Positions 45,880-64,000 of a DNA stretch of 64,000 bases are shown here, piece after piece. The stretch comes from Gemmatimonas sp. (lineage in GTDB: Bacteria; Gemmatimonadota; Gemmatimonadetes; Gemmatimonadales; Gemmatimonadaceae): contig JANNVQ010000014.1 of NCBI GenBank assembly GCA_031414535.1, positions 256,001-320,000 on the forward strand, read 5' to 3'. The position numbers were made by a program, and so were the translations under genes. The notes below the pieces were generated by a model. It saw only the letters and a program-made list of their open reading frames with translations, was not told the origin of the DNA and searched no databases. Position 1 is the stretch's first letter; every line of letters starts with the position of its first letter.

Positions 45880-47114
45880 GAGCTTCGACACCTGTGACGC
45901 TGGCGCGCCGCGCGGATTTTCCGCTGCTGGCGGCTCAGCCTGAGCTTGTATACCTCGACTCGGCGGCGACTTCTCAGAAGCCGGCTGTCGTTCTTGATGC
46001 GATTCGCAAATACTACGAGACGGTGAATGCCAACCCGCATCGTGGGGCGTATGCGTTGTCTGCGGCGGCGACTGAGGCGTATCACAATGCTCGCTTGCGC
46101 ATTGCTCGGTTTATTGGCGTGGCGGATGCTGACACGGTGATCTTCGTGCGAGGGGCGACGGAGGGGTTTAACCTCGTCTGCTCATCGTGGGGCCGCGCGA
46201 ATGTTCGCGCGGGTGACAATATCGTCGTGACGCGGATGGAGCATCACGCCAACTTTGTGCCTTGGCAGCAGTTGTGTCGTGCTGTGGGCGCGGAGTTTCG
46301 CATTGTCGAGCTCGATGCTGCGTCTAACGTTGACCTAGCGATGATGCGCAGGCTGGTGGATGCGCGCACGAAGGTTGTTGGGTTTGGGCAGGTGTCGAAT
46401 GCGCTCGGGACTATCAATCCGGTTGCGGAGATGGTTGCGATTGCGCGTGCGCAGGCGCCTGGTGCGCTTGTGGTGTGCGATGGTGCCCAGGCGGTGCCGC
46501 ATCTGTCCGTATCTATAGATGCGCTCGGCGTGGACGCGTATGTGTTCAGCGGGCACAAGCTTGGCGGGCCGATGGGGTCAGGCGTTGTGGTGGTGCGCCG
46601 GCCGGTTCTGGAGAAGATGCCGCCGTATCATTTTGGCGGGGATATGATCGAGTGGGTGAATGATCAGGATTCCACTTGGAATGTGCTGCCGCATCGGTTT
46701 GAGGCTGGGACGCCTAACGTTGAAGCCGCTGTGGGCTTGGCGGCTGCGTGTGACTATCTGGAGTCACTTGGGATGAATGCGGTGCGTCAGCACGAGTTGT
46801 TGCTGACTTCGGCGGCTATGCGGATGCTTGGGGAGATCGAGGGAGTTACCCTGCACGGGACTCCGGCCGCTGAAGGTAGATCAGGCGTGGTTTCGTTCTC
46901 TGTTGCGGACGTCCATCCGCACGACGTTGCCACAACGCTCGATGCTGCTGGGGTCTGCGTGCGCGCTGGGCATCACTGTGCGCAGCCGTTGATGCGCGCG
47001 ATGGGTGTTGCAGCGACGACGCGCGCTAGCTTCTGGGTGTACTCGACACTTGAGGATGTGACGAAGCTCGCATCTGCAGTTCGGGCGACGAGCGAGCGAT
47101 TCGCCGGAGCCTGA
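45876..47114 (+). CDS. sufS: Cysteine desulfurase SufS
   Basis: YLDSAATSQKP, EHHAN, DGAQ, SGHK (PLP Lys), RAGHHCA. Confidence 0.95.
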   Translation: MRASTPVTLARRADFPLLAAQPELVYLDSAATSQKPAVVLDAIRKYYETVNANPHRGAYALSAAATEAYHNARLRIARFIGVADADTVIFVRGATEGFNLVCSSWGRANVRAGDNIVVTRMEHHANFVPWQQLCRAVGAEFRIVELDAASNVDLAMMRRLVDARTKVVGFGQVSNALGTINPVAEMVAIARAQAPGALVVCDGAQAVPHLSVSIDALGVDAYVFSGHKLGGPMGSGVVVVRRPVLEKMPPYHFGGDMIEWVNDQDSTWNVLPHRFEAGTPNVEAAVGLAAACDYLESLGMNAVRQHELLLTSAAMRMLGEIEGVTLHGTPAAEGRSGVVSFSVADVHPHDVATTLDAAGVCVRAGHHCAQPLMRAMGVAATTRASFWVYSTLEDVTKLASAVRATSERFAGA

Positions 47115-47116
47115 CC

Positions 47117-47159
47117 CGGGAAACGACGGGATCCGAGCCCGCGACCCCCTGAACCCCAT
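47117..47159 (-). other. Degenerate 3' half of tRNA-Pro (att remnant)
   Basis: Minus strand reads ATGGGGT-TCAGG-GGGTC-GCGGG-CTCGGAT-CCCGT-CGTTTCCCG: anticodon loop (GGG) through T arm to acceptor; no D arm. Confidence 0.7.
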
Positions 47160-47384
47160 TAACGGGTCAGCTCGTGGCACCCTGGCACAGTGTTGAGTTT
47201 CGCCCGCCCTCGAGATGCAATGCAAATCATTGCACCGACACCAGTTAGCTGGCGTTTTAAGCTGCTCCAACATCGGTGAAGCACAGTTCTCGGAATTCTT
47301 GGGAGACATCGGAAACAAGCGCATTTCCAGTCGGCTGGCACATTCCAGGCACAGTGCGAACGCGATCCGCGCCGGCATCATCGA

Positions 47385-48812
47385 TCAGCGCAGCTTCTTG
47401 GAGCGGCTGCAAACGACTAAACGCTTGGCGCCGCGAGTCATTGCGACGTAAAGGTGTTCCGGCCCCAGAGGATCCGCGTCAAGCACAATCGAGATGTCAG
47501 CTTCAAGCCCCTTCAGCAGCAAGGTGCTACCGACCGCTCGACCCGGGAGGGCACGCAAACCGAAGCGGGACTCCTCGCGGATCCGTCTCGCAACTTCCCC
47601 ATAGGATCGTAGTGGTGACTCAGCGCATGTGCGGGCCATCTGCAGGCAAGAGTTCAGCAAGACCGGGCGGAATACGTGCGAGCCAGACTGCGACTGGAGC
47701 GCCGCGAGAAGGAGCGCAATCCGTCCAGGCGCTGCGTCTGCAAGCAGGCTCAGGGCGGCGCTCTCCACCTCCGAGGTCGGCTTACGTGAGCGACCGTTGA
47801 CGATAGACTCAATGCGAGCGGCCAGGTCCGCCGGCCGTACCGCAGTCATTACGCTCGCCGCGAGCGAGGCTGTGAGCTCCAGTATCTCTGTCCCACTTTC
47901 CACCTCATCGAGGGACTCGGCGAACTCGATAAACTCACGAAGCTCGACCGTCTCGACTGCGACTGCCCCTCTGGTCTGGCGTGCAAAATCGTGCTGCAAT
48001 GCCTTGTTCTTGCTATCGACGAGGATAAGTGCGGTACCGCCGCCACCAGGCAAGCGCCGGTTCGCAGCACTCAACTGCACAGGAGTATCGTGTGAGGGAT
48101 CACCCGTGAGGCCAACCCATTGGACCGCATCGGGCGCAGCCGAAAGCTCGATGCCTTCTCCCGCACTCAGTGGGGATCGAATTCCCAAGAGCCACTCGCC
48201 AAGCTCTTGCGCACCGCTGTTCTTCCATCGCCACGGGACGTCCAGCTGAGCTACCATCGGAAAGTCTCTGAGCACAACATCTCGCCAGCTGGGAAGACGG
48301 TTGCCTCCAAATCCGAAAATCGCCTGAAGCGGATCGCCCAGCACAACCGTGGGTAGCGCTTCAGACAGTCCACGTACCAGTTGGTGCTGGAGCTGGTTGC
48401 AGTCCTGGTATTCATCGACCCAGGCCCTGACATAAGTCTTGCGAAGCAGCTCTTCGATCCCACCTTCAATAATCAGCCTCACCGCAGCGCGTCTTATATC
48501 AGGATAGTCATCCCTTGGACTCCGAAGCTCCAGGGCAGCCCGGCGCACACCGGACCTCTCCGGGAACATCGACACCATCCGAAGCGCCCAGCCATCAAGA
48601 GTGAACACCCTGAACGCCTTGGGGTCGACTTTGGACAGCGATAGGCGCCGGCGGAGAACTGCCACACCGGCGTTAGTGTGCGTGAGGATCAACACTGGTC
48701 GCCTATTGCGGATAGCGGCCATCGCATCGACGATCAACTGAGTCTTTCCACAGCCAGCCGGGGCCTCAACCGAGCCGCGGAGTGCCTCAATCAAGACGTC
48801 AGACTGCGGCAT
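47385..48812 (-). CDS. gajB: UvrD-like helicase, Gabija GajB-like
   Basis: APAGCGKT, LTHTNA, DEYQD, GDPLQAIF, KGLE, LYVAMTRG; compact 475 aa; overlaps the OLD nuclease gene. Confidence 0.8.
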   Translation of the reverse strand: MPQSDVLIEALRGSVEAPAGCGKTQLIVDAMAAIRNRRPVLILTHTNAGVAVLRRRLSLSKVDPKAFRVFTLDGWALRMVSMFPERSGVRRAALELRSPRDDYPDIRRAAVRLIIEGGIEELLRKTYVRAWVDEYQDCNQLQHQLVRGLSEALPTVVLGDPLQAIFGFGGNRLPSWRDVVLRDFPMVAQLDVPWRWKNSGAQELGEWLLGIRSPLSAGEGIELSAAPDAVQWVGLTGDPSHDTPVQLSAANRRLPGGGGTALILVDSKNKALQHDFARQTRGAVAVETVELREFIEFAESLDEVESGTEILELTASLAASVMTAVRPADLAARIESIVNGRSRKPTSEVESAALSLLADAAPGRIALLLAALQSQSGSHVFRPVLLNSCLQMARTCAESPLRSYGEVARRIREESRFGLRALPGRAVGSTLLLKGLEADISIVLDADPLGPEHLYVAMTRGAKRLVVCSRSKKLR

Positions 48813-50511
48813 CCCGCGCCCACGCCCGAAGCGCTTCGATGACTAAAGCGATGTTCAAGGCGGACCCGGTCAGTGCTGGACCTAGAATCTCACGGGCCGG
48901 AGTCTCCATTTGACTAATCGATTTGAACCAGCCGCTGCCAGCCTTCGCAGCTAGCCCGAGAACCTTGCGAGCGTCATCAGTGATTGATGCGCGGCAATCG
49001 GTGAGGCCAAGAACCCCGTTACTCTTGGACTTGATGTGCGAGTCGATAGCGGCCTCAGATTGTAACTCAACCGCGCACTCCAGCAACTGTCTGACTGCCT
49101 CCTCTGGGAGCGCAGAGAATAGCGCCTGCTCCGTCGAATGGCCTTCGCTCCACTTGAATAAATGTCCTCCTGCTTCCACGAAGGCATCCTCGCCCGGGGG
49201 CGCAAGCGCGACGTCTGAGTCGCGAAGGATTGCCACCTTGAATCCAAGAGCCTGCAGCGCTTGAGCCCGACCTCCCACTCGCGAATGGCCATTGCTGTCG
49301 ATGAAGACAACGCCCACCGAAGCGAGAGTGGGCCTCGCCTGGCTGTCCTCGAACTGATCAAGACCGCGGAGCAGGCCAACCTCTGTGGAGCCCTCACATA
49401 CCACAACGGCACGCGCCAATAGGGCCTCTGGGAAGGTGCGCACTGTTCCCTGAATCTCATCTGCAGTCCCGACAGGCACACAAAGGTGCGCCTCCTCCGT
49501 TGGCCTCCTTAGAATCCACAATGCGTCGCCTGAGAGTTCTCTAATCACGACGGGTGAATGCGTGGTGAGGAACACCTGAGCCGAGGGCTGTGCCGACTTC
49601 GCTCCGAGTGTGTCCAGCAGTCGCGCCACGCGATACGGCTCCAGCCCATGCTCGACCTCATCGGCAATGATCATGCACGTGCCGCCCCCCAAGGTCTGCT
49701 GCATGCCGGCCGTCAGGAGCCGAACAGAGCCCGTGCCGAGACATTGCAGCGGAATGCCTTTGCTGGTGTGAAGCGCAATCGTGCCCCTTCCGAGCGATAT
49801 GGAGTCAGCATCGAGCATCGCTTTCAGGCCGTCCCCGATTTTTAGGCCGAGAAGCACCCCCTTGGCGGCTATCGCATCGAGGGTGTCCTGTAGATCGGGC
49901 GCCGTCTTCTCACCGAATGCCTTCCGCGCTTCACGGGCTGCGGTAGCGAGCGCATTGGACGCATTCGGAACATCAGACGTCAGCCGGCTAAGCACGGAAC
50001 CCTGCCGCCAAGCGAACTGCGAGCTGCTGCTGACTCCGATTCGGATCGGTCCGAGCTTGGTTCGAATGCCCCAGGGAATTCCCCTTTGCAGTCCCAACTC
50101 TCGGGAACGATCGGAATAGAGCGTCCACGTTGGGTCTAGCGATTCGTCGACAACCAGCTGCAGCGTCACCACGGTCTCCAATCCGACCCCAGCCTCGTCT
50201 GCAACCTCCCCCGACTCAGCATCAAATCCTCTGAGGTATTGGCCGTAGGTGTCAATGTCGAGTAGCTCGTCCGGAAGTTCGCCAATAGTTGCAGCGATCC
50301 GGATCGGCTTGCTGTGGTCTAGCTCGAAGAAATCGGCGTCGGAGAAAGCGATCGCTCGCCGCGCTCCGAGGCACAGGTCTATCGCGTCAAGCACCGTGGA
50401 CTTCCCCACGTCGCCGGGGCCTAGCAGGCAGTTGAGGCCAGGCTTCGGGTTCCAGTCGAGGGATCTCATGCCGCGAAAGTTCTCGATCTCCAGCCGTCTG
50501 ATGCGTGTCAT
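48799..50511 (-). CDS. gajA: OLD-family ABC ATPase-TOPRIM nuclease, Gabija GajA-like
   Basis: IENFRG, GPGDVGKST, LGTG, DEVEHGLEP, TTHSP, TOPRIM VVCEGSTE and RDSD. Confidence 0.82.
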   Translation of the reverse strand: MTRIRRLEIENFRGMRSLDWNPKPGLNCLLGPGDVGKSTVLDAIDLCLGARRAIAFSDADFFELDHSKPIRIAATIGELPDELLDIDTYGQYLRGFDAESGEVADEAGVGLETVVTLQLVVDESLDPTWTLYSDRSRELGLQRGIPWGIRTKLGPIRIGVSSSSQFAWRQGSVLSRLTSDVPNASNALATAAREARKAFGEKTAPDLQDTLDAIAAKGVLLGLKIGDGLKAMLDADSISLGRGTIALHTSKGIPLQCLGTGSVRLLTAGMQQTLGGGTCMIIADEVEHGLEPYRVARLLDTLGAKSAQPSAQVFLTTHSPVVIRELSGDALWILRRPTEEAHLCVPVGTADEIQGTVRTFPEALLARAVVVCEGSTEVGLLRGLDQFEDSQARPTLASVGVVFIDSNGHSRVGGRAQALQALGFKVAILRDSDVALAPPGEDAFVEAGGHLFKWSEGHSTEQALFSALPEEAVRQLLECAVELQSEAAIDSHIKSKSNGVLGLTDCRASITDDARKVLGLAAKAGSGWFKSISQMETPAREILGPALTGSALNIALVIEALRAWARDAAV

Positions 50512-50652
50512 GTTCTCTCACGGAGGCGTTACTCTTGTCACGGCTCACGATCGAGCCTCGAATGCGATCGAGAGACGTTCCGACTTGGACCAGGCATCGT
50601 CAAGGTGCTCGCCTGGATGACTCCGGCCTAGGCCAGAGGGCGCAGCGCGACG

Positions 50653-51432
50653 CTAGAATCGAAAGTGCCGTCGTATTGGCGGGAGGAATCGTAGCGAAGC
50701 GGCTTGATTCATCGGCCTCTTTGGCCCGACGAGCAGGGGAGGCTCCTCGTAGTGCCCAACGAAGGCCCTGAAGTTGTCGATGAGCGATTCAAATCCGTTT
50801 CGCCCGGTCTCCGCGAACGTGCGCACAAACTGGGGCCTTGAGACGGGCTGCACATAGGCCCTGTCCGCGCTGCTATGGGGAAAGACCCACCACAGGTGCC
50901 CACCATCCCCGAAATCGAAGAACACGTGAGCGCTGCTACCGAGCCAGTCTCGGAAGAGGGCACCCGCGGGCCTGAGTATCTGTCGTTTGTTGAAGTTGGG
51001 GATGTAAGAGGTGCCGCGGGCCCATTCCTTCGCAAACCTCGCAAGATCACGTTTCCGCCGCGCTCCATCCACGACCCAGACTAGTCCCTCATAGAACTGC
51101 TCCCGTGCACGACGCTCGTCGGGGTCTATGTGGGAATGCTGGAACTCCAGAACCCATCCATCCGCCGTCTTCACGTCTGCAATGTGCAACTCGCCGCTCA
51201 GGGCTCGGTGGACGACCTCCTGCCAGTCCGGCGGGAAGTGATTCTTCCACGCCCGGTGCCACTCGGTCTCGTTCTCCGACCAGGGGTCGCAGGTTCGAGT
51301 GCCGGCGTGGGCCCAGTGCCACGTCTTGATCTCCCCGCACTTGGCGATGACAGGCTTGCCGCAGCCTGGACACTCGGCTACGAGTTTGGGCAGCGCCTCG
51401 AGCCGCTGCCCCCCATGCAATGCAAATCTCAT
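50653..51432 (-). CDS. CoiA-like protein (Zn ribbon + PD-(D/E)XK-type nuclease)
   Basis: CPGC..KCG..HWAH..CDPW..ETEWHRAWK, HIADV..VLEFQHS. Confidence 0.8.
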   Translation of the reverse strand: MRFALHGGQRLEALPKLVAECPGCGKPVIAKCGEIKTWHWAHAGTRTCDPWSENETEWHRAWKNHFPPDWQEVVHRALSGELHIADVKTADGWVLEFQHSHIDPDERRAREQFYEGLVWVVDGARRKRDLARFAKEWARGTSYIPNFNKRQILRPAGALFRDWLGSSAHVFFDFGDGGHLWWVFPHSSADRAYVQPVSRPQFVRTFAETGRNGFESLIDNFRAFVGHYEEPPLLVGPKRPMNQAASLRFLPPIRRHFRF

Positions 51433-51535
51433 CTGACCGCGGCCTCCCCACGGATGACGTACGACTTCAGCGGTTGTTCTGCATTCCGATTCTAGCGCCG
51501 GGAACCGACAGCGAGGGCCGCCTTCTGTGAACCGA

Positions 51536-51570
51536 GCCGCCAGATCCGAGCGGATCTGGCGGCCCTTTTT
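51536..51570 (+). terminator. Strong hairpin with T-tract, oriented for + strand transcription
   Basis: GCCGCCAGATCCG-AG-CGGATCTGGCGGC-CCTTTTT. Confidence 0.55.
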
Positions 51571-52034
51571 GCGTTTCCCTCTTCTGGAATTGGCTCATTC
51601 TGGGCGAAGTAGGCTTCCGACCGCACCGCTCGGCTATTCGAGCTGGCGGCCTCACGGAGCGTAGAGGCCAGTCGATTCGGCCAATCCCACCGCAATCCCA
51701 CTCGGAATCTTCTTCCAATGCCCCACGCATTAACTCGCCGCGAGGTGAGGGACTCGCGCCGGAGAGTGGGTATGCGAATTCCGGAATCGTGCCGTTTGCG
51801 GGACCAGCTACGTATCCCAGGGCTCTCCATCTCGACTCGAGTTCAGAAGCCCCCGTATCCGCTCACGAAGACGAGCTCCTGTCCTCAGACACTGGCAAGG
51901 CCCCTTACCCACCGCATCCCTCCGCAACAACGGAGTGCCCCGGCGACGAATAGCCGCCAAAGAAGGAGGCTTAATGCGAGCGGGGCGTGCTACGCACTCC
52001 CCGCCCCATCACTGCTCAAACGTCGGCAACCCCG

Positions 52035-54971
52035 TTAGCCACCCGACGTTGTGACATCGTCCGAAAGTCCGACGTCTCGGAGACCGCTCCGTAGCTCATC
52101 AGCCGTGTGCTGGTCCGTAGCAGGCTCGAATGGCATCCGGAACTCAACGCGCACCGTGAGTCCCGGCTTCGACGCGATGCGGGTGAGCACCTTCATGTAG
52201 AACGTGGTCCACTTCTGTATCGGGACTTGACCGGTCCAGCCGAGGGCTCGAGATGTGAGTTGCAGTTCGCTGTGGCGCTTGACGTTGGGAGACTCGTTCA
52301 CTGCCACCGACACTTCCGCTTGCGCGGTGATGTCACCCGCAGCCACACGCACGGCGAACCTCCCGGTCTCCGCTCCAACCACCAGCTGTCCGTCGGGCGA
52401 GATTTCGCCCGTGGTTGTCGACCATGAGAGTGCAGGCTTCGACAGCTCGTGTCCGTACTGATCGAACGCGCCGATGGTAAACTTGGCCTGCTCACCGGGC
52501 TGCAGCACTACGCTGTCGGGGCGCAACGAAAGCAGTGCCAATCGCGGTGGCTCAAGGAGGCGCTGCGCATCAGCAGACTTCAGGATGAAACAGTCTTCTG
52601 CGATTTCGACCTCGTGTTCCGACAGGTCCTCGTTGAATCGAACGAGCACGAGTCGGCCTGACGCATCGCGATGCGCATAGCCGAGCAGTCCCTGCGACAC
52701 GCCAGCCGCTATGCTTCGTTTGACGACCTCGCCGCGAATGAGGCGCGGCAGCAACGGCGACGAGAAGAATGCATCCCTGAGCGCTTTGGTGGACCATTCC
52801 GTGAACGCGGGTGGCCAGTACTTCAGCAACCGGTTTGCACCAACGGCGTCCGTCACTTCGTCGTCCTTAATCATTCGATTGAGGATCAGCTCCGAGTGAC
52901 TTCCCGCCATACTCGACGTGATCTGACCGAGATCTATCTCGCGGATGATGTTGTCTTTGCCGAGTAGATACAGATAGCGGTAGGAGCGCCACACGGCCTC
53001 GCGCAGGTCCTTCTTGGCCCGCTTGAGACTCTCGGTTAGTTGTCGACGCTGAATCTCATCCAACCGACCCTTGCTCTCATCGTCGTCGTCAACGGCTTCC
53101 CATGCGAGCAGACTGCGCGTCGCCTCGACCGCCGTGTTGCCCGGCGCCGGCGCCACAAAGATCAGGGCACTCTTGAACGAGCGCGCTGAAGCTCCGGATT
53201 CACGGACAATCGTCTCCATGAGCTGGCGAGTCATTGGTTCCCCGGCTGGCGTCTCAGGGCCCATGATAACCAGTGTCAGCTCCGGCCGGTCGGGAACGTC
53301 ATTACTCTTCGCCGGCGAGAAGCGGCGTTCGAACGTCTGCTGCCCTTCCTTAAATAGCGCCTCCGTTTCATCTCGCAATCTTTTCGCAATCACGTCGGCC
53401 TTCACCTCGGCTCGGCGCGTGACAAGGATCTGGTTCAGGTTGGGACTGAGGCTGAACCGATAGCGGTTCTTGTCGCCACTCAGGTAGAAAGACGACGCGA
53501 TGAGCTGTTCGAGCACATGGTCGACATCGGCCAGGTTGGTATCGGGCTCACCGACCGCCGTCTTGATCTCCGCGACGCTGGCTTCCGCCCGTGACTGGGA
53601 TTGACCACCATTGCTTTCGAAGAAAATCGCTGTCGCAGTCTTCAGATGAAGACGAGACTTCCTGATCGACTCCGTGGCTTCCTTGTCGAGTCGCGCCGCG
53701 TGCGAGTCGTTTCGGCCAGTGATGTCCGAGATGACGGGTACTTCGAGGCGATCAGAGCCGAGCTGCTCGAACACCGCTGCTCGAAACGTCGGATCGTCGA
53801 GCGGAGCGGACCCCAAGGTTATTAGCGGCTCCTTCGCTGCCTGTCGATGCTCCTCCTGATATGCTCGCGCGACCCAAAGGGCGAGCAATCGCAGCACTCC
53901 CCGGGTTCGTTGAAAGCGCGGCAATCCTTGCCACTTTCGTTCGAACACCGACAGCACGGACGGGTGGAACGGGTACGCTGACAGAAACAGGTCGTAAGCG
54001 GACGCGGCGTCGATGCCTGCTAGCTCGCCATTGTGCGCCACGGCCCAGCCGGCGTACTCCGAGATGGTCTTCTTGGCGTCCACAGAACTCCCGTGCCACT
54101 CAAACAAACGACGGCGGATGATCTCGGCGAACTCGGTCTCGGCGCTCATCATGATCGCTTTTCCGACGCGGTCGAGCAGTTTCTTCAGGGATTCGTGGTC
54201 ACGCTGATCCTCAGCGTTCATCTCTAGTTCCGATGCGGGGATCGAAACGCAGAGCACCATGTTGTCGCGTGCTCGGGCTTCCTCGGAGAGATTCTGGAGA
54301 AAGTTGTAGAGCTGGTCTCCGAGCTTGAGTTTCCGCGCACGGCTCACGTAGTTTAGCAACTCATCCATCAGGATCAGCACAGGCCCGGCGGGGAGCATCT
54401 TTCGAATCACGTCTCCCGCAGGCGCGATCCCATCCGCGTCATGCTTTGCGACGGTCTCGAACGCCTTTTCGCCGCCGAGCTGCCAGGCGATCTCCCCCCA
54501 AGGAGTGCGACGCTGCGGCTCGCCCTTGCCGCCGCGACCGTCGATCACGTCGAACTCCGTTCCTACGAATACCGCAACCGCCGCCGTGGGAACCTGTGTC
54601 ACACCAGCCCGAGAGAGGATGCCATCTACGCCCTTCCACTCGGCTGCCGCCTTGCCGCCGTTAGCGAGGTGATACAGCGCTGTGAGAGAGTGTGTCTTTC
54701 CACCGCCAAACTGCGTGGCCATGTTGAAGACGGCCGACGTCTCGACCTTTATACCGGAAAGCCGGCGCACGACCTGGCTCGATAAGTCGAGCAGGCTCTT
54801 CGTCAGGTAGGTACGGTCGAAAAAGCGCCCCGGTTCCAGATAGTCGGGATGGGCCCGGTGATCGCGGATGTGGTCGAGATGTACCGCGAACTCGCTGGCA
54901 TCGAGCGGGCGGTTGTCGCGCAAATCTTCGCGCGGAGTCACCACCTGGTACCACGGTTTCAGTTTGGCCAT
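52035..54971 (-). CDS. DUF499 family AAA+ ATPase with C-terminal Ig-like domain
   Basis: KPWYQVVTPREDL..SEFAVHL, QFGGGKTHSL (Walker A), ILMDEL (Walker B), EIIRRRLF, YPFHP, FQRTRGVLRLL. Confidence 0.88.
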   Translation of the reverse strand: MAKLKPWYQVVTPREDLRDNRPLDASEFAVHLDHIRDHRAHPDYLEPGRFFDRTYLTKSLLDLSSQVVRRLSGIKVETSAVFNMATQFGGGKTHSLTALYHLANGGKAAAEWKGVDGILSRAGVTQVPTAAVAVFVGTEFDVIDGRGGKGEPQRRTPWGEIAWQLGGEKAFETVAKHDADGIAPAGDVIRKMLPAGPVLILMDELLNYVSRARKLKLGDQLYNFLQNLSEEARARDNMVLCVSIPASELEMNAEDQRDHESLKKLLDRVGKAIMMSAETEFAEIIRRRLFEWHGSSVDAKKTISEYAGWAVAHNGELAGIDAASAYDLFLSAYPFHPSVLSVFERKWQGLPRFQRTRGVLRLLALWVARAYQEEHRQAAKEPLITLGSAPLDDPTFRAAVFEQLGSDRLEVPVISDITGRNDSHAARLDKEATESIRKSRLHLKTATAIFFESNGGQSQSRAEASVAEIKTAVGEPDTNLADVDHVLEQLIASSFYLSGDKNRYRFSLSPNLNQILVTRRAEVKADVIAKRLRDETEALFKEGQQTFERRFSPAKSNDVPDRPELTLVIMGPETPAGEPMTRQLMETIVRESGASARSFKSALIFVAPAPGNTAVEATRSLLAWEAVDDDDESKGRLDEIQRRQLTESLKRAKKDLREAVWRSYRYLYLLGKDNIIREIDLGQITSSMAGSHSELILNRMIKDDEVTDAVGANRLLKYWPPAFTEWSTKALRDAFFSSPLLPRLIRGEVVKRSIAAGVSQGLLGYAHRDASGRLVLVRFNEDLSEHEVEIAEDCFILKSADAQRLLEPPRLALLSLRPDSVVLQPGEQAKFTIGAFDQYGHELSKPALSWSTTTGEISPDGQLVVGAETGRFAVRVAAGDITAQAEVSVAVNESPNVKRHSELQLTSRALGWTGQVPIQKWTTFYMKVLTRIASKPGLTVRVEFRMPFEPATDQHTADELRSGLRDVGLSDDVTTSGG

Positions 54972-54995
54972 TTGTTATCCGTTCGAAGTCGTAGC

Positions 54996-57926
54996 TCAGA
55001 GATTGAAACTCTTACGGCGGGCGAGCAAACCGTCCACCCATCGCTTCTCATCAGTTCCCGGTGGATACAAGGCCGAAAGCGACTGCGCGACTCGCCAGAA
55101 TCGAGTATCGGTGCCGGCCCCGTCCTCCGTAAGGAATCGCTTGAGTGCCTCTCCGCGACCCGCCGAGAACAGCAGCATGCACTGATGGACCTTATCCAAG
55201 GTCGTACCAGAAGAAGCATTGTGGCCCACTTCAGAACTGGTAGACGGTGCAGCCTTCGACATCTCAGCCTCGGAGAACAGCGTCCCCTGTGGTCCATTCG
55301 TCGACCGGCCTACCACACGGCGCTGCACTTCCGTCGAATCGGTGAACAGCCAACGGGCGCGCTCGGCGACCGACAAGAGCCGGGCGGTCTCGCCCTTGAC
55401 CTCGACAAGTGTCCCGAGCTCCTCCAAGTGAGCCCCGAGTCCTTGAGCAATCTTTCTCGCGGCGTCGAATTCCAGAACGTAGCCGCGAACCGGACTCGAC
55501 TTTGCGTCGCTTCCGTCGTCCTCATCCGCTGCGTCGTTCTCTGACTCCTCGGTGGCCGTACTCGGCCGACCGGCTCCCACCGTCCAAAGCCACATGGCCG
55601 TCAAGCGCGCGTCCGGTTCGAGACCTGCAGAGTCGGCACCATCGAAGATGGTGGAGAGTGCCTCGTTCGCGACCGCTCCCCATACGTGTTCCAAGTATTC
55701 GGAAAGCGCCACAACGTCGCCATTGGACTTCTCAACGCGGCTGTATCGGCTGAAGACCTCCAGTGCCGGCCCGATACATGCGAAGATTGCATCTGCACCC
55801 ACAATGCCTTCCTTGGCGAGCCGCGGCATCCATTCGTGAATGCGTCCGGGTAACGCTGAAATCACGTCGCGCCAGTCACCGACCGAGTCAGTTTCCACTT
55901 GCCCGTCTGGGCGCTCTCGTGGGCGGCAAACAAGGAAGATGGACGACTGGAGTGACGCCGAAGCCTGAGCGCGCGTTCTATTCTGCATCTCTGTGTCGAC
56001 CGGCCACGACGCAGTCACGACCCATCCGCCTTCGATCACGGCGCGGAGCATTGCCTCCCACGCTGTGGTACTGCTGTCGGCAAACACGATACAAGCGATC
56101 CCGCTTGGCTTTGTGATCTCGCGCGCTTTCGCCAGCGCTTGTGTCATTCCCTGCGAGAAGAACTCTTCATCTTTTGGTTCACCCGAAGGACCTGTCGCTG
56201 AGTTGGTGACAATCAACTCGCGTTGCTTTGCGACGAGTTCATCTCGAAAGTACGCGGCGTCGCGTCCGCGAAGCCCACGCTTTAGCCAGACGTAGAACAC
56301 ATCCGACAGGTCAGCGTACGGAATCGCCGCAAAATACGGAGGATCCGTGCAAAAGACGTCGACTGAATCGGCAGGCAACGGGACAGTTTCGGCGCTCGCA
56401 CATTCGACGCGACCGGCGTGGTCGAGTATGAGATTCGACTGCAAGACCTTCGCAACCCACTGCACAGCCGCCGGCCAACTCGCCATGACGTCATGGGTCG
56501 GATTGGATTCAGCAAAGTCCCACAGTATCTGAAGGGCTTGCTTGGAAAAGAGCCCTTCGATCTTACTTCCAGTGTTGTTCCAGCGCGAAAGCGACGTGTT
56601 CTGCATTACAAGTCGGTCAAGCGCCAAGTGCAGAAGAGTCTCGACCGCGTCGTCCAATGCCTTGTCGGCTGCGCTCTTCTGGTCCAGAGATGAGTGAATT
56701 GCGTCCTGGAAGGCGACGATTGCCACCGCCTGACGAGCCGTGTAGAGGTCCAAGAAGCGGCGCATGCCAAACCGCGTCACGCCACTGATGCCCCTTGTAT
56801 TCGCATAGGGACGAGTCGGATTGATAGGCTCCGTGGGAAACACACCCGGTCGGCGCTTCTGCATATCCGCGTAGGCAGCGGTAGCGGCAGCGACAGCGGC
56901 CACATCATTCCTGTTTGGAGCGCGAAACGAACGGGCTCCGTTGTGCTCGACCAAGACCGCATATAGGCGCGCCGTGTTCGCTCCTCCGAACACGGCCGTC
57001 ATCTGCTCCTTTACACGCTTCGCCGACGTCGTGTAGCCGCAGCGCACGCAGGTAGCCTTTCCACCACTCACGGTGGCTGTAGTTCGCTTTTCAATGCCGC
57101 TGACTAGCTCGGTGAGGACCTTGCGCCCAGAGGCGGATACCAGCACGTGCGCGACGGGCGACTTTCGCGAGAGCTGGGTAGCGCGCAGCAACGGCAGTTC
57201 CACACCGCATCCTGGGCCCTCGCACTGGATAGTACGCGCCCAGAGGTAGGCGATGGGAACCGCCTTGTTGGCGTCACGTGGATAGAGCGGCGCGAGCGTC
57301 CGTTGCGCCTCCTCAAGCACCGCGTTCGCACGTTCGCGAAGGCGATCGATCAAACGTTGACCGAAAGCGGGCAGGTACTCCAGAATCACCTTGTTAAGGA
57401 GAACAGGCACCGGGTTAAGGTCGGACGCAAACGCGTCCGCGCCTATCCGCACTGCTTCCAGAGGTATTGCTCCGCCACCAGCAAAAGGATCAACGACGAG
57501 CGGACGAGTCCCCCTCTCGCCCCCGAGTGCTTCGTGGGCCGCGTTCACAAGAGCACGGGCAGTCTCCAAGAAAATTCGTTCGTCAGCGTGATCCCAGTTT
57601 GCGAACTCAGCGATAAAGTCGAGCAGCCCGAGTCGCAGCGCCATCGGATTCCGCCAGTCGCGTTCCTCTCCGCCTCGCTCATCGCGGAACTTCTTGAGCC
57701 ATGTTCCGCAAGAATTGACAAAGGACGCTGGACATTCCGGGTCTGCAGGGTCCGGCAAGAGGGCGCCAAGCAACGCGGCTCGCGCGGACGCAAGCGGACG
57801 CCGGGCCCACCAGATGTGGAGCGTCGAGATATGTCCGTGACGTAGAGTCTTCTCTCGGCGCGATTGATTCGACACCTCTGCAATCGGCAGGTCAACTTCG
57901 ATGAGGCGCTTAGGGTAGTTGTGCAT
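54996..57926 (-). CDS. DUF1156-containing adenine-specific DNA methyltransferase
   Basis: KRLIEVDLPI, LHIWWARRPL, DPFAGGG (motif I), TDPPY (motif IV), Zn-ribbon Cys pairs; start at ATG 57926. Confidence 0.9.
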   Translation of the reverse strand: MHNYPKRLIEVDLPIAEVSNQSRREKTLRHGHISTLHIWWARRPLASARAALLGALLPDPADPECPASFVNSCGTWLKKFRDERGGEERDWRNPMALRLGLLDFIAEFANWDHADERIFLETARALVNAAHEALGGERGTRPLVVDPFAGGGAIPLEAVRIGADAFASDLNPVPVLLNKVILEYLPAFGQRLIDRLRERANAVLEEAQRTLAPLYPRDANKAVPIAYLWARTIQCEGPGCGVELPLLRATQLSRKSPVAHVLVSASGRKVLTELVSGIEKRTTATVSGGKATCVRCGYTTSAKRVKEQMTAVFGGANTARLYAVLVEHNGARSFRAPNRNDVAAVAAATAAYADMQKRRPGVFPTEPINPTRPYANTRGISGVTRFGMRRFLDLYTARQAVAIVAFQDAIHSSLDQKSAADKALDDAVETLLHLALDRLVMQNTSLSRWNNTGSKIEGLFSKQALQILWDFAESNPTHDVMASWPAAVQWVAKVLQSNLILDHAGRVECASAETVPLPADSVDVFCTDPPYFAAIPYADLSDVFYVWLKRGLRGRDAAYFRDELVAKQRELIVTNSATGPSGEPKDEEFFSQGMTQALAKAREITKPSGIACIVFADSSTTAWEAMLRAVIEGGWVVTASWPVDTEMQNRTRAQASASLQSSIFLVCRPRERPDGQVETDSVGDWRDVISALPGRIHEWMPRLAKEGIVGADAIFACIGPALEVFSRYSRVEKSNGDVVALSEYLEHVWGAVANEALSTIFDGADSAGLEPDARLTAMWLWTVGAGRPSTATEESENDAADEDDGSDAKSSPVRGYVLEFDAARKIAQGLGAHLEELGTLVEVKGETARLLSVAERARWLFTDSTEVQRRVVGRSTNGPQGTLFSEAEMSKAAPSTSSEVGHNASSGTTLDKVHQCMLLFSAGRGEALKRFLTEDGAGTDTRFWRVAQSLSALYPPGTDEKRWVDGLLARRKSFNL

Positions 57927-57936
57927 TCGCTCTCGA

Positions 57937-60900
57937 CTAAGCCGGGACTGCGGCTGCGGTGAGTTGCGACATCGCGAGCCGATAGTGTTCGACGACGACA
58001 ACCGCCTGCCAGCCAAGGGTCGCGGGGTTGTTGATCAGACGAAGGTCAGGCTTCGAACTGCAGTTGAACACGACATAGAGCCAATAGTCGCCGCCGAGCC
58101 GCTCAGCCGTCCGGTGTTCGTTCGAGGTTAGCGCGACATCGCCGACAGCGGAGCGTCCCTTCACCTCGATGAAACGCACTTCAGTGAAAGTCTTGACGTC
58201 TTCCGGGTGCGGCTTTCGCGAAATCAGATCGAAGCCACGATTCTCGCTCTCGACGCTCTCGACCACCCAACCGCGAGCGCGTTCGTACGCCATCGCCGTG
58301 TCGACCGCGATCCGTTCGACCTCCTCATCGCGAACCATGGGCGCGTACTGTGGCTCCGCCCGCTCCGGGTGAGGCAACACCCACGCGCGCCCAAGATGCG
58401 TAAGATCGCTCACAGTACAGTGCCGCTCCATGTCCAAGTCCTTGCGGCGCGCATCGAGGCGGTTGTTGAGCGTATCCAGGTGCGTCTCAGCCTGAGCGAT
58501 AATGCCATCAAGGCCCGGGGTGGTGCGACCGTCCTCCTGACGACTCAGAAACTCCGCGAGCTGGAGTTGCTGTCGGTCGATGAGCGCCTGAAGACTGATT
58601 TCGACGTGTTGCGCGATTCGGTCAACCTCCTGAGAGCGCTGGGTAGCGGTCTCCGCAAGCCAAGGCGCGAGGCTCTGCGAGTACAAGTGCTCTTCGGAGA
58701 CTTGGCGTGCCGGCAGCGGCAGGTCCGGCGCAAGCGTCCCCTTAGGCGCTGGGTTTACGTCGTGAAAGACTGTCGGCTGCCTGATCGTTACCGTGCCGTT
58801 CGGAGCTGTCTCAACCACGAACAGTCTCCGGTGCAAGGTGTTGCCGCGCCCGTCCTTGATGGAAGCCGCAAAGACGTCCCACAGCGCCGACTCCTTTCGG
58901 TGCAAATCAAAGAACACCGTACCGCGGTTGAGATCGTCTGCCGTGCGCTCGGCAATTTCCGTACGAACTGCCTCGAAGAGCGGATGGCCCGGAGTGACCC
59001 ATTCGAGCGTTGGGTCTGCTTCCAGCAACTGCTTATCGAAGACGACCTTGCCGAACTCTCTTCCCAGTCGCCCGTATCGCGGCTCTTGCCGATCACCGAT
59101 GGCGACGAGCAGGCGCGGAATCTTGCCGATACGGTAGATGTGCGTACTCGGCCCTGTGGGATTTGGCGAAAGCCCTGCTTCGGCAGCTGATGCGGTGAAG
59201 AAATCTTCGATCACCTCGGGGACGAGGCGACGTTCCTTCGCTTCAACCGCGCGATTGATAAGCGACGAGAGATTCAGATTACGCCGTGCAAGACCTTCAA
59301 GGGCGCTTTCGGTAATTGCTCTGAAACGCTCGGGGTCGACGTCGTGCACAATCCGATCCTGCACCTGATTCACGTCGAGTTGACGGAGGTACATCTCGCG
59401 GAACAGTCGCTCGATAGTTGATGCCGGAAGCACTTCTCCAACGACGTCAAAGACCTGGTCGGTTCCGAGCTCGTTCCGGATCTCTTTGAGACGATCAAGC
59501 AACTTCTGCAGCACGCGTCCTTCGCGCGTGTTCTGCGCAACGAAATTGAAGACGAGGCAATCGTGCTCCTGTCCGTAACGATGGATGCGTCCGACTCGCT
59601 GTTCGAGGCGCATCGGATTCCAAGGGATGTCGTAGTTCACCATGAACCAACAGAACTGCAGATTGATTCCTTCCCCCGCCGCTTCCGTGGCGACGAGCAC
59701 CTGACAGCTTTCTCGGAACTCCCGCTCCGCGTAGATACGGGAACCGGGCGTGTCGCGGTCTCCGATCTTCATTCCGCCGTGGATCTGTGTGACGGATAGT
59801 CCCATGTCGCGGAGACGCCCTACAAGGAAGTCGAGCGAATCTTTGTGCTCCGTGAAAATGAGCACTTTCATGGTTGGGTCTGAGAACACCCCCTCTTCGG
59901 ACAGGAGCGTCTTGAGTCGCGTGAGCTTGCTTTCAACCTCGCGTTTCTCGAGGGCGCACGCTTGGATGATGAGCTTTTCGAGATTGGCGATCTCTTCGCG
60001 GAGCGACGTAGGGTCTACTGACGCAACCACGTCCTCGAGTTTCGCGAGAATCTCCTGCTTTTCTTCGTCTTCGAGTTCGTCAAAGTCATCAGGCACTTGC
60101 CGATCGATTTGCGCTTTGCGGTACGCTTCCGGATCCTCAAGTATCAGACTCCGCTTGTCTTTCATGCGCTCAAGCGTTCGACGCACCGCGTAGACTGTCG
60201 ACGCCATGCGGCGCTGCAGCATCGCCATGGTGAATCCGACGGCTCGGCCGCGTGTTGCATCCTCGCTCGATGCACGAATGCTCTGGTCCTCGACGTAGTG
60301 CGTCAACGAGTCGTAGAAATCGAGCTCGTCCCCGTCGAGGTCGAACGCGGCGGTACGCACCTCGCGTTTTGTGAATAGCTTGCGCACTTCCCCCGTCTCC
60401 GGATCGGGGAAAGTGACTAGCGCTTCCTTGGTACGCCTCAGGTAGAACGGTGCAACGTTCTTACGCATGGCCTCCTTCAGACTCGCCACGTCGCCGTAGA
60501 CGTCCTTGTCAAGCAACGCGAGGAAGAGACAGAAGTTCTCCGGGTCTCCTTTATGAGGCGTTGCTGTCATGAGGAGATAGTGATCGGTCATCGTCGACAG
60601 CGACTCGCCCAGACGGTATGCAAGCGTCTTCCGGTCGTCGGCGTACGCCGCCATCTTGTGCGCCTCATCGACGATCACCAGGTCCCACCGGGATCTGAGC
60701 AAGCTTTCGCGCGCATCTTCTATCCGCGACACCCAGGATACCGACGTGATCGCCTGATCTACGTCTTGCCACGGATTCTGGCCGTAATTGGCGCGAAGCA
60801 CATCGCTCCTGATGACGCTAAAATCCTCCCGAAACTTGTCCTTCATTTCGCGCTGCCACTGGAACGTCAGGTTGGCCGGTGTGACGATCAGTACCCGCTT

Positions 60901-61344
60901 CACCAAGCCACGCGCCTTGAGTTCCTTGAGCAGCAAACCGGCCATCACCGTCTTGCCGGCGCCTGGATCGTCGGCCAGAAGGAAGCGGATTCGCGGGAGT
61001 GGTAGGAAGTAGTCGTACACTGCCTCCAGTTGGTGAGGCAGCGGATCTACCCTTGCGATGGAAAGCGAGAAATAGGGGTCGTATTCGTAGGCGAGGCCAA
61101 GTCGAACGGCCTCGACTCCGAGGCGAAACTTCCGCGCATCACCGTCGAACGGATCGCGGTCGGCCGAGACCGTGAGTTGCGCCAGCTGAGCCATTGTGAG
61201 GATCGGATCGCGCGTCAGACCCGTTTCCAGTCCGCGTCCAATCACTTTCACGGCCTGCCCCATCGGCTGAACCGCAAGCACTTCGATCGGCTCAGGAAGC
61301 GTGGGTCCGCGGACGATCATCCCGGGCCGGAGGGGTTCTCTCAT
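57937..61344 (-). CDS. SNF2-family helicase with C-terminal DUF3883 (PD-(D/E)XK-like) domain
   Basis: LPHQ, LADDPGAGKT, DEAH, TATPH, EGINLQ, EQRVGRIHR; C-terminal GFDLISR..FIEVKGR; start at ATG 61344. Confidence 0.92.
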   Translation of the reverse strand: MREPLRPGMIVRGPTLPEPIEVLAVQPMGQAVKVIGRGLETGLTRDPILTMAQLAQLTVSADRDPFDGDARKFRLGVEAVRLGLAYEYDPYFSLSIARVDPLPHQLEAVYDYFLPLPRIRFLLADDPGAGKTVMAGLLLKELKARGLVKRVLIVTPANLTFQWQREMKDKFREDFSVIRSDVLRANYGQNPWQDVDQAITSVSWVSRIEDARESLLRSRWDLVIVDEAHKMAAYADDRKTLAYRLGESLSTMTDHYLLMTATPHKGDPENFCLFLALLDKDVYGDVASLKEAMRKNVAPFYLRRTKEALVTFPDPETGEVRKLFTKREVRTAAFDLDGDELDFYDSLTHYVEDQSIRASSEDATRGRAVGFTMAMLQRRMASTVYAVRRTLERMKDKRSLILEDPEAYRKAQIDRQVPDDFDELEDEEKQEILAKLEDVVASVDPTSLREEIANLEKLIIQACALEKREVESKLTRLKTLLSEEGVFSDPTMKVLIFTEHKDSLDFLVGRLRDMGLSVTQIHGGMKIGDRDTPGSRIYAEREFRESCQVLVATEAAGEGINLQFCWFMVNYDIPWNPMRLEQRVGRIHRYGQEHDCLVFNFVAQNTREGRVLQKLLDRLKEIRNELGTDQVFDVVGEVLPASTIERLFREMYLRQLDVNQVQDRIVHDVDPERFRAITESALEGLARRNLNLSSLINRAVEAKERRLVPEVIEDFFTASAAEAGLSPNPTGPSTHIYRIGKIPRLLVAIGDRQEPRYGRLGREFGKVVFDKQLLEADPTLEWVTPGHPLFEAVRTEIAERTADDLNRGTVFFDLHRKESALWDVFAASIKDGRGNTLHRRLFVVETAPNGTVTIRQPTVFHDVNPAPKGTLAPDLPLPARQVSEEHLYSQSLAPWLAETATQRSQEVDRIAQHVEISLQALIDRQQLQLAEFLSRQEDGRTTPGLDGIIAQAETHLDTLNNRLDARRKDLDMERHCTVSDLTHLGRAWVLPHPERAEPQYAPMVRDEEVERIAVDTAMAYERARGWVVESVESENRGFDLISRKPHPEDVKTFTEVRFIEVKGRSAVGDVALTSNEHRTAERLGGDYWLYVVFNCSSKPDLRLINNPATLGWQAVVVVEHYRLAMSQLTAAAVPA

Positions 61345-61773
61345 TCGCTGCGGGTTTCCTGATGTGGCCCGGCGCGGCGGAAGAATGCCGGGCACGGGCG
61401 CATGGATTGAGCAAAGCGTCGTGTTATCGGAAGGAAAACTACCCGCCGGGTCTGGGGCTGACGAGTAGTCGTCTGCGGTGATCGCGGCGATGCACGATCC
61501 GCACTGCCCTCCCGCCGCTCATCGCAGCCGCTTGACCGCAGCATCGAACGTGGAACTGATGTGGTATCGGACACGAAGGTACGTTCGCCCTCCGACAATC
61601 GAGCCGGTAAGTCGTCCAATCTTCATTCCGAGCCAGCTGCTGAGCCGGATTCGCGATCAAGCTGGCATCGGCTCGTCTCTCTGGCACACTACTGGCACAC
61701 AAGACAACAATGCGACGCGGTCGCAAGCCACGCGACTGCATTGCAAATTGTTTAACAACAATCACTTACAGCA

Positions 61774-61812
61774 TCAGGACGGCGGGATTCGAACCCGCGA
61801 CCCTCTGAGCCC
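61774..61812 (-). other. 3' half of tRNA-Pro (att remnant)
   Basis: Minus strand reads GGGC-TCAGA-GGGTC-GCGGG-TTCGAAT-CCCGC-CGTCCTG-A: perfect T arm, G72/A73 typical of Pro; no 5' half, no CCA. Confidence 0.8.
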
Positions 61813-62126
61813 TATGAAGGTTCCCGAGAATCCGCGAGAAATCCGACGCATCCACAAACTCAATTCGCGCAAGCACTTACGTTGGGCATGACAGCTGTGC
61901 GTGTAGCTGCGCCACCGGCCGCAACCTGGAGTTCGCACACGAATGGCACTCTAAATCACAGATTGTACATATATCGCAAACGGCGTGGCACCCGATGGGA
62001 CGAGGGCTAACCCACGTGCAGCAGGTTAATCTTAGCGTCCCCGCGAGAAATCCTCGACAATCAGCGACCCCGCAGAGCCTTCGATCCGCTCAAAGCAAGC
62101 ACCGTCTTATTGATTGGACCCGAAGT

Positions 62127-63545
62127 TCAATGAAAACGCTCTCCAGCGGGGAGATCGTCCACTTCGATGGTCGACAGCTGCTCATCAGACGGCGAGGCTA
62201 GCGCGGCAAGCCGGTTGGACTGACGCGTCAGGCTTCGCTCAAAGAAGTTCCGCACAAGGCGGCCATTACCGAAATCAGCGCCACGAGTTTCGTGCAGCGC
62301 CGTGAGTAGACTGGTCGCCAGCTCACGTGCGGGAGGTGAGATGTTAATCCGAGCAGAGTCGACCATTCGGGCAAGAATCTCAGTCAGCTCACCTGGCCCG
62401 TAGTCTTCAAAATGCATGAACTTGTTGAAACGCGACTTCAGGCCCGGATTCGACTGCAGAAATTCTGCCATTCGATCCTGATAACCCGCAACGATTACCA
62501 CCAAATCGTCTCGATGGTCCTCCATGAGCTTCAAGAGGGTCTCGATGGCTTCGCGTCCAAAATCGGTGCCCCCTCCGCCGGCACTAAGGCTGTAAGCTTC
62601 GTCAATAAACAGAACGCCTCCACGAGCGCTCTCAACAACCTCGCGCACCTTTAATGCGGTTTGCCCAACATAACCGCCAACAAGCCCACTACGATCAGTC
62701 TCGACGAGGTGTCCGCGCCGCAGGAGTCCGAGAGCACGGTATATCTCGGCCAGCAAACGTGCCACTGTGGTCTTTCCCGTCCCGGGATTTCCGGAGAACA
62801 CTAGGTGCAAGGACACGGGCAACGAGGGAAGTCCACGCTCTTTACGCAAACTGTTGACCCTAATGTGGTTTACGAGCCCCTCGACGTCCTCTTTGATTCT
62901 TGCGAGGCCCACCAGCGCGTTAAGACGCGACATCAGCTCCCCAAGGGTCTGCTGAGGCGGAGCAGCGCCCGCCATCGCCTGCGCTGGCGCCAGTTCATCC
63001 CTGGCTTCGGAGCCACTAGCCGCATAAGCTTCGTCGTCCTCGGAATCGTCGACTGGGAAGGCGGGGACTGACTTCTCAATCAGGTGAAGGCGCATCACGT
63101 GAACGAAGTGCGTGATAGCATCGACCTCGTCAAGGTTCGAGTCGTCAACAGCTGCGAACTTCAATCCAATCTGTTCGAGCACCGTTACGACGCGTGCCGC
63201 CACCGCCGAACCGTTCGCAGCATCGAAGTCGGCTATGTCTTCGACAAGCGATGGCACTCGTGCGAGAAAATCGGGATCTCCCTCGCGCGCGGCGAGAACT
63301 CCTGCGACCACTTCGTGGTATGAGTTGTTCCTTCCGGCAATCTCATTTATCAGCTTGGCTTCAGCGACGGTGATCTCACCATCTGAGGCAAGAACATGGA
63401 AGAGATAATCCGTCATCAAACCGATCGCTGCGTCCTGCGCGTTCGGTGCAGTTCCAAAGCCCTTCCGGTCCACTAGCTCACTCACCTCGACTAGCACAGC
63501 ACCTGCTTGCTTGAACGTGTCGGCCAGTTCGCGGATATCAGACAT
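62127..63545 (-). CDS. AAA+ ATPase of the SpoVK/CbbX type with TerB-like N-terminal domain
   Basis: LVGLARIK, FSGNPGTGKTTVAR, LVGGYVGQT, LFIDEAYSL, NPGLKSRF, FGNGR; N-terminal VLASDGEITVAE; start at ATG 63545 (an upstream start at 63626 is possible). Confidence 0.85.
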   Translation of the reverse strand: MSDIRELADTFKQAGAVLVEVSELVDRKGFGTAPNAQDAAIGLMTDYLFHVLASDGEITVAEAKLINEIAGRNNSYHEVVAGVLAAREGDPDFLARVPSLVEDIADFDAANGSAVAARVVTVLEQIGLKFAAVDDSNLDEVDAITHFVHVMRLHLIEKSVPAFPVDDSEDDEAYAASGSEARDELAPAQAMAGAAPPQQTLGELMSRLNALVGLARIKEDVEGLVNHIRVNSLRKERGLPSLPVSLHLVFSGNPGTGKTTVARLLAEIYRALGLLRRGHLVETDRSGLVGGYVGQTALKVREVVESARGGVLFIDEAYSLSAGGGGTDFGREAIETLLKLMEDHRDDLVVIVAGYQDRMAEFLQSNPGLKSRFNKFMHFEDYGPGELTEILARMVDSARINISPPARELATSLLTALHETRGADFGNGRLVRNFFERSLTRQSNRLAALASPSDEQLSTIEVDDLPAGERFH

Positions 63546-64000
63546 GTGCGTCTCGCTAAGGTTTTTCTTGACCGGCGACCAGTTCACGCCGGCGGGGAGA
63601 ATCAGAGGACGGCGATAAGTATGCACTCCCTCAAACTTCTCACGCTATCACGGTGCCTGCTTACTAACAGTCGGCCTAGGTCACTCTCCCTCCAAACGAC
63701 GAATCTTCCTGAATCTCGGCCTCGGTCATTTCACAGTCGTAGCCTCAGGCCGCCATTCGAAGAAAGCGAAACCCGATTTCGCAGACGGACCTTCGCAACA
63801 GCGCGTTCCCTTTCTGCTGGAACCGCTTCTTTGATCACACTTGAATGAAGTCGACGCCCGGCCCAGTACCTTTGGCAAAAGGGTCAGCTTCTCTTTGGCA
63901 GAAGGCTTGCCCGCGCTGCGCGGCGGATTGTCGACATGCGACGCACAGAGGCTCGCCAAGCCGCTGGGCCTCCGGTTCCTCAGCCGTCCTCAGCGGCTCC

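Follow-up and report, generated by a model that had tools for sequence, protein, structure and literature searches.

A predicted defence island between two tRNA-Pro(GGG) halves beside sufS of Gemmatimonas sp., a possible relic of a tRNA-targeting island family

Cis-mobilizable elements (CIMEs) are defined in PMC5704250 as elements that have lost their integration and transfer genes and have kept attL and attR, and PMC7563491 gives the classical ones a size of 1.2–13 kb. In the current study, a comparable island was found in a 64,000-nt stretch of DNA (the window; nt 256001–320000 of contig C14, JANNVQ010000014.1) from a Gemmatimonas sp. assembly (G000; 58 contigs, 98% complete). It occupies nt 47117–61821 of the window, beside sufS, and carries two predicted anti-phage systems, Gabija and Hma, between two 3' halves of a tRNA-Pro(GGG) gene. 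As in the CIMEs of these accounts, attL, attR and cargo are kept without genes for integration or transfer, the island stands in tandem with a decayed element, and its size is close to theirs. The stacks described there sit at the 3' end of the target gene, whereas the island beside sufS has neither a target gene nor a functional neighbour that could move it in cis. Its descent from an ICE (integrative and conjugative element) or an IME (integrative and mobilizable element) would have to be assumed, as the parental type in relative G024 shows no relaxase in its assembled part. According to PMC10201445, an ICEfinder survey recovered no CIMEs, which suggests that they are under-detected.

Islands of the kind mapped by Islander (PMC4383910) are also similar, in that 3' tRNA fragments from an anticodon-centred crossover mark their ends and tandem junctions are described. 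The present island, however, has no full tRNA at its locus and no integrase, and thus fails two of the filters given in that paper; moreover, its fragments differ from the host's own tRNA-Pro. Tycheposons (bioRxiv 10.1101/2020.12.28.424599) target tRNA genes, carry integrase, excisionase and replication genes along with cargo, stack, and leave partial tRNAs, but they belong to another phylum and, in that account, stay anchored to their tRNA, so that the likeness is one of analogy only. ICEBs1, as reported in PMC3715440, provides a tRNA-targeting element at a non-tRNA site, with poor excision, which would be predicted here as well; that was a laboratory case with attB deleted, whereas the island beside sufS is natural and decayed, and its route of arrival is presumed. 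The process is a known one of decay, and the variant feature is that the stack stands apart from its tRNA and that the tRNA of the host is mismatched. By a slight balance of probability, nt 47117–61821 represent a CIME-like relic of a Gemmatimonadota tRNA-Pro(GGG) island family that came to lie off-target beside sufS and is now probably fixed.

The two ends carry the first part of the evidence. An earlier note on this DNA, made from the sequence alone, had described homologous tRNA-Pro 3'-half remnants at these places, and both were located; they form the top direct repeat of nt 46800–64000 (nt 47123–47162 and 61779–61818; 40 nt, 83%). When the 40-mer was slid across the same region, its partner was identical at 33/40 positions, and the next best place at 22. 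On the minus strand, both repeats read as 3' halves of tRNA-Pro(GGG), from the anticodon loop to the acceptor stem, and each fragment reaches the tRNA 3' end in the same orientation. Alignment scores of the left and right halves were 20 and 21 against the host's own tRNA-Pro(GGG), versus 32 and 36 against the form typical of the family in relatives. When up to 3 mismatches were allowed, a 30-mer of the common tRNA-Pro form matched in 153 of the 201 family genomes, and its reversed control in none. The left half begins 2 bp past the sufS stop (nt 47114), as the note had said; its remark that this copy is the more decayed holds for the 3' end, while in the anticodon arm the right half is the worse of the two. 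An inverted repeat of 11–12 bp flanks the left half (nt 47107–47118, in the sufS stop region, and nt 47164–47174, in the P arm). It was weighed as a possible inversion scar; since its inner arm is contiguous with the core in relatives G024 and G035, this reading was dropped.

Homology extends beyond the tRNA halves into the adjoining arms (Table 1). The arm beside the left half aligned to the attR arm of G024 with a score of 65 (shuffle maximum 34; tRNA part excluded), and to the G035 arm with a score of 45 (shuffle maximum 33). On the right, nt 61574–61821, tRNA half included, are 77.6% identical over about 250 bp to the sequence that follows the intact tRNA-Pro(GGG) of G024, i.e. its attL, and the P' arm without the tRNA part scored 194 (shuffle maximum 36). 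A hidden Markov model (HMM) of 50 non-self P' arms matched nt 61680–61770 with an E-value of 5.3e-10, the sole strong match in the genome; the corresponding P-arm model, built from only 3 sequences, was too weak. Tandem arm-type sites lie at -196 and +72, with identical spacing in G000 and G024. Allowing up to 2 mismatches, exactly 3 such sites occur in the window, all at att flanks, where 0.5 would be expected per 64 kb. We take these to be putative integrase-binding sites, and the motif in the P' arm to be IHF-like, both after lambda-type att sites. The 7-bp overlap sequences of the two island ends differ at 2 positions.

Arms and spacing that match attR and attL of G024 support the view, put forward in the earlier note, that both ends are att scars, left by a family of islands that use a tyrosine integrase and enter tRNA-Pro at its anticodon loop. 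Its suggestion that at least two islands have stacked also gains from the third tandem site, which points to a second element abutting on the right, although the probable P arm of that element has no alignment-level homology to other P arms. The P' signature was found in 27 GTDB stretches, 25 of them titled Gemmatimonadota or lower ranks of that phylum, and in 30 metagenome stretches, and in no viral contig of IMG/VR; among 54 relatives, the search found it in G024 alone. Genus-wide BLAST with the P arm as query did not recover G024 and G035, both known to have the arm, and no count was taken from it.

Misassembly at the att junctions was ruled out by independent contigs that bridge each junction separately, the whole island being in no single piece. 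Two contigs match with 0 differences: one, from another sample of the same study, covers nt 46034–47623, and one, from the possible source sample, covers nt 60835–64000. Base composition does not tell the island apart (G+C 60.3%, versus 61.2% in the suf operon and 63.8% in the genome).

All six cargo ORFs are open and lie on the minus strand. They include a complete Gabija set, gajA followed by gajB, and a complete Hma set in the order hmaA, hmaB and hmaC (helicase-nuclease, methyltransferase and ATPase), both of which are predicted from their genes to act against phages, and which have the standard gene order of these systems. The NOV_C nuclease core of HmaA is described in PMC11232893 with conserved D, E-x-K and E residues, and the corresponding residues (D1038, E1059, K1061 and E1075) are present here. 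No insert separates hmaA, hmaB and hmaC, whereas inserts are given in that paper for about 2/3 of hma loci. No PADLOC, PHROG or NCBIfam model matched the sixth ORF, the CoiA-N gene, and the claim that the island holds only defence cargo therefore stands for 5 of the 6 ORFs. Family-model scans of these ORFs, which fill the island, gave no match to integrase, relaxase or type IV secretion system families. Together with a six-frame search of C14 for PF00589, this bears out the island's description as integrase-less, and comparison with the sufS loci of relatives agrees that its genes are not core.

Table 1. Features of the sufS-side island and its borders (positions in nt of the window)
Feature	Position	Strand	Evidence
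sufS, at the end of the suf operon; borders the variable hotspot on its left	45876..47114	+	TIGR01979 above cut-off
Left tRNA-Pro(GGG) 3' half, attR-type core and tRNA tail	47117..47160	-	35/38 to family-type tRNA-Pro(GGG) of relatives
P arm of attR, tandem arm-type sites at 47336-47353	47161..47355	-	homology to G024 and G035 arms
gajB, Gabija UvrD-like helicase, intact ORF	47385..48812	-	PADLOC GajB E 5.5e-161; Walker A and DEYQD motifs
gajA, Gabija ATPase-TOPRIM nuclease, intact ORF	48799..50511	-	PADLOC GajA E 5.6e-207; AAA_21 and OLD-like TOPRIM
CoiA-N-domain protein	50653..51432	-	PF25164 E 4.2e-9
Spacer of ~600 bp with terminator-like hairpin	51433..52034	.	presumed site of deleted int/xis module
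hmaC, DUF499 AAA+ ATPase	52035..54971	-	PADLOC HmaC E 9e-121
hmaB, DUF1156 methyltransferase, DPPY motif	54996..57926	-	PADLOC HmaB E 1.7e-113
hmaA, SNF2 helicase with NOV_C nuclease	57937..61341	-	PADLOC HmaA E 1.2e-186; Pfam NOV_C
P' arm of attL: IHF-like site, hairpin, tandem arm-type sites 61682-61699	61574..61773	-	homology to G024 attL
Right tRNA-Pro(GGG) 3' half, junction of island and next element	61774..61821	-	42/48 to family-type tRNA-Pro(GGG) of relatives; contig-bridged
Probable P arm of second, stump element; tandem site 61933-61950	61822..61950	-	1 of 3 window sites with <=2 mismatches
AAA ATPase (SpoVK/CbbX-like), the accessory gene next to the island on its right	62127..63626	-	below curated cut-offs

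The locus itself lacks the expected target. The earlier note had placed an intact minus-strand tRNA-Pro beyond 64 kb, with a tyrosine integrase downstream, yet ARAGORN and Rfam found no tRNA in the 38 kb from the window end to the contig end, and the PF00589 search found no tyrosine integrase on C14. Five PF00589 matches occur in G000, all on other contigs (C7, C30, C57, C31 and C40). It had also expected sufS to adjoin tRNA-Pro in relatives, where sufS adjoins ggt or variable genes and never a tRNA. The lack of a downstream tRNA-Pro undoes that placement and leaves the att-scar origin of the two ends standing. A default ARAGORN call of tRNA-Ser at nt 43810–43893 lies inside sufD, lacks Rfam support and is probably false, and the 175 calls made on C14 under relaxed settings (-ps85) were discarded as noise.

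In relatives, the region downstream of sufS is similarly devoid of tRNAs. The gene was found in 31 of the 36 same-genus genomes searched; no tRNA-like half followed it in the 22 of 24 relatives' loci with usable downstream DNA, and ARAGORN found no tRNA in 9 longer sufS-downstream stretches. ggt comes after sufS in 12 of the 14 relatives examined, directly in 5 and at a distance of 1.9–14.1 kb in 7, and the genes found in between differ and are unrelated from one relative to another. Since tRNAs are absent and the gene content varies, the sufS-ggt interval is a tRNA-free variable hotspot. In the present genome, the island is followed by an AAA ATPase, an OLD-like ATPase, a VWA gene, toxin-antitoxin pairs and a WYL pair, and core-type genes resume from ggt (~85 kb) onward. 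The VWA gene at 66.6 kb is 55% identical to one that lies directly after sufS in G006.

Integron-related repeats also occur at this hotspot. A strict scan and nhmmer gave a single attC on C14 (135 bp; nt 64641–64775, L001:2641–2775), 2.8 kb to the right of the island. The genome as a whole has 88 attC-like repeats, on C9, C3, C6, C36, C51 and others, and an IntI-like gene (C31:45385–46620); the size of this repeat family indicates a large chromosomal integron split over small contigs. In G008 (L031, G008:C8), the sufS stop leads straight into an attC cassette array that shares the orientation of sufS; the 20 kb examined there showed no integrase. The island was considered as an integron cassette, and this was rejected, as neither of its ends is an attC and the sole attC of C14 lies outside it. 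An attC-like reading of nt 62010–62120 was not confirmed.

In its arms the island matches that of G024, which is split over two contigs, with attL at an intact tRNA-Pro(GGG) and attR on the other contig. A type I restriction-modification system and Mrr stand at attL, followed by a tyrosine integrase (PF00589, phrog_1), an excisionase (phrog_66), a 600-aa ORF and ArdC, with Cap15 at attR. By tblastn, the integrase, excisionase, replication protein and ArdC of G024 have no homologue in G000 beyond weak Xer matches. A second case of the family at a non-tRNA site is a 2-kb remnant in G035 (L113:6130–8140, G035:C13), a genome with the same variant tRNA-Pro as the host (see below). It comprises a tRNA-Pro half, two small genes, and an integrase fragment (64–69% to G024) fused to a gajB fragment, and is a deletion derivative that joins the two fragments. 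Its P arm and overlap abut the stop codon of a convergent peptidase gene, and the genes on its two sides lie next to each other in G000, where no tRNA separates them. When its outer ends are joined, 15/16 positions match the anticodon arm, and the joined sequence reads as a putative secondary attB.

Orphaned halves are not unique to G000. The closed chromosome G371 (L238–L239, C1:3298199–3320830) has a second cluster, of four tRNA-Pro halves, which includes a 923-bp single-gene unit, and in G372 one tRNA-Pro half lies inside a tRNA-Val stack. Integrase-less units bounded by att sites, 0.9–31 kb in length, are frequent in tRNA-Pro stacks (G371, G372, G373, L164 and L178). A G024-type integrase was found within 10 kb of only 3 of the 27 GTDB loci with the P' signature, by three integrase queries and with flanks that are often short.

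The host's own tRNA-Pro(GGG) lies at a conserved locus on contig C40, distinct from the sufS locus even though the two contigs may belong to one chromosome. Against the common form it has 12 differences, of which 7 fall at positions 29–43, in the anticodon arm; in this region it also differs from the att core at 7 positions. Two tRNA-Pro(GGG) alleles with different anticodon stems, both fully compensated, occur in genus g1; the exact variant arm is present in 9 of 55 genomes and a perfect standard-type match in 34 others, a tenth variant match (2 mismatches, in a standard-type genome) having been set aside. In a tree of sufS with 25 rows, the variant requires 3 changes, of which at least 2 are forced by supported branches, and it does not fall on one branch; the tree is of one gene, 5 rows are unlabelled, and G008 is labelled standard from its halves only. 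At C40:10345–10552 (L003), the variant gene is intact and has its own terminator, and about 90 bp further on there is a 59-nt standard-type tail. The same layout, with a standard-type tail behind the variant gene, is seen in G235 (L040), an arrangement that suggests replacement of the standard gene by the variant.

How the island reached sufS can be reconstructed as follows. The parent would have had the layout of G024, i.e. attL, cargo, an int-xis-replication-ArdC module, further cargo and attR. The host's primary attB being poor, the family integrase would have taken a secondary site at the sufS stop, where elements could then stack by integrating into each other's att sites; the int/xis/replication module would have been deleted afterwards and the defence genes kept. 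PMC3715440 reports that ICEBs1, when attB is missing, enters secondary sites, that its excision from them is poor and that its replication is harmful to the host; such harm would favour the loss of this module. Excision would now require a cognate integrase from an incoming element. Because none was found in the assembly the island is probably fixed, and because the overlaps differ at 2 of 7 positions its excision may be poor.

Several observations weigh against this origin. A single integration at a secondary site would leave no tRNA half facing sufS, and the model needs either an earlier, deleted element or a crossover in the acceptor stem to provide one. No more than 5 bp are common to the sufS stop and the anticodon stem, and sufS ends likewise in at least 5 relatives that lack an island. 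The spacer between the CoiA-N gene and hmaC shows no similarity to G024 core genes and no trace of int, the far end of the second element (the outer attL of the stack) was not found up to ggt, and with 58 contigs an integrase could sit unassembled. The sequence after the tRNA half of G035 differs from the family P' arm, which also counts against a secondary attB there. In G371, the cluster of four halves lies ~540 kb from the only intact tRNA-Pro(GGG), in a standard-type host, and one of its junctions has a variant-type upstream core, so that a variant stem may not block integration.

The half that faces sufS would be explained directly by block import, a less likely origin but one to be taken seriously. 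Here the distal end of a stack on the standard tRNA-Pro of a donor would have entered the hotspot by homologous or illegitimate recombination, anchored on the right in shared accessory DNA and joined by microhomology at the sufS stop, with no integrase acting at the site. The left end is exactly like the distal attR of such a stack, integrase-less att-bounded units are common in stacks, as listed above, and the hotspot is open to varied DNA among relatives, including the attC array of G008 and the one attC here. The join, however, must coincide with the tRNA 3' end and fall within 2 bp of the sufS stop, the terminator that usually follows attR in a donor is absent, and in G035 the family occupies what reads as a genuine secondary attB.

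Returning to the CIME-like relic, a further and doubtful proposal concerns the cause of its displacement. In this proposal tRNA-Pro(GGG) is the most heavily used island docking site of Gemmatimonadota, and some lineages would have exchanged its anticodon stem; the variant tRNA-Pro would be poorly recognised by resident integrases, islands would go to look-alike sites at stop codons of convergent genes, and with loss of the integrase they would become fixed defence loci. Decayed standard-type halves at a distance from the tRNA gene occur in 3 of the 9 variant hosts, G000 (3), G010 (1) and G035 (1), and outside these one doubtful match (3 mismatches) was found, in G036, among 34 standard-type genomes; these counts are small and not independent.

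Two other origins are improbable. An intragenomic move from the tRNA-Pro locus on C40, for example by a circle re-entering via attC (through IntI or RecA) and followed by a deletion to sufS, could draw on the standard-type tail behind the variant gene, which indicates that the lineage once had a standard site, and on the IntI-like gene and the 88 attC-like repeats. Only one of the 88 is on C14, outside the island, whose ends are not attC, and the genes downstream on C40 match the attR-side genes of G024, so that no gross rearrangement is seen. Equally improbable is that the unit still works as a non-autonomous element, which an integrase encoded elsewhere would excise and move in trans, within a cassette-like system of integrase-less tRNA-Pro units. 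The well-kept arms, the three well-kept tandem sites and the open cargo ORFs would fit this, as would the rarity of a nearby G024-type integrase at P'-signature loci. Mobilization in trans, which the earlier note had also raised, is unsupported in G000, where no relative of the family integrase or its partner genes was found and the PF00589 matches are all on contigs other than C14; the overlaps are mismatched, and no excision or circle joint was present in contigs of four runs of one study, contigs being prone to drop rare forms. A stack on an intact minus-strand tRNA-Pro just past 64 kb would be the usual arrangement of the family (G024, G213, G179 and G249), but it needs a misjoin of C14 at 64–85 kb, with the rest of C14 empty by ARAGORN, Rfam and PF00589 and core-type genes resuming at ggt, and can be set aside as very improbable.

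If the preferred reading of a CIME-like relic is correct, the locus is a clear case of defence systems fixed in a chromosome after decay of their carrier. Scars of tRNA halves need not indicate a nearby tRNA, and tools that require a tRNA and an integrase miss such islands; the arm signature is a usable marker of the island family across Gemmatimonadota. Should it be true that the variant stem blocks the family integrase, this would be a natural case of attB escape, in which a host-altered tRNA site redirects defence islands. No published description of Gemmatimonadota tRNA-Pro islands, or of attB escape by an anticodon-stem change, was found in a search that excluded subscription journals and supplements.

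Further to the right of the island, the region at 68.9–80.7 kb (L001:6900–18750) holds successive toxin-antitoxin and regulator genes, which encode mobile mystery proteins A/B, an MqsA-like protein, two HipA, a PafBC-like WYL pair, a NYN protein and an AAA-DUF4143 protein. At five loci (L169, L170, L173, L214 and L230), only the last ~20 tRNA-Pro bases are repeated, after a GC-rich hairpin, 50–430 bp behind a full half; these short-tail junctions may reflect either another point of crossover or a small repeated element. L214 holds another island with this P' arm, in which, as in G000, an HmaA homologue (33%) adjoins attL.

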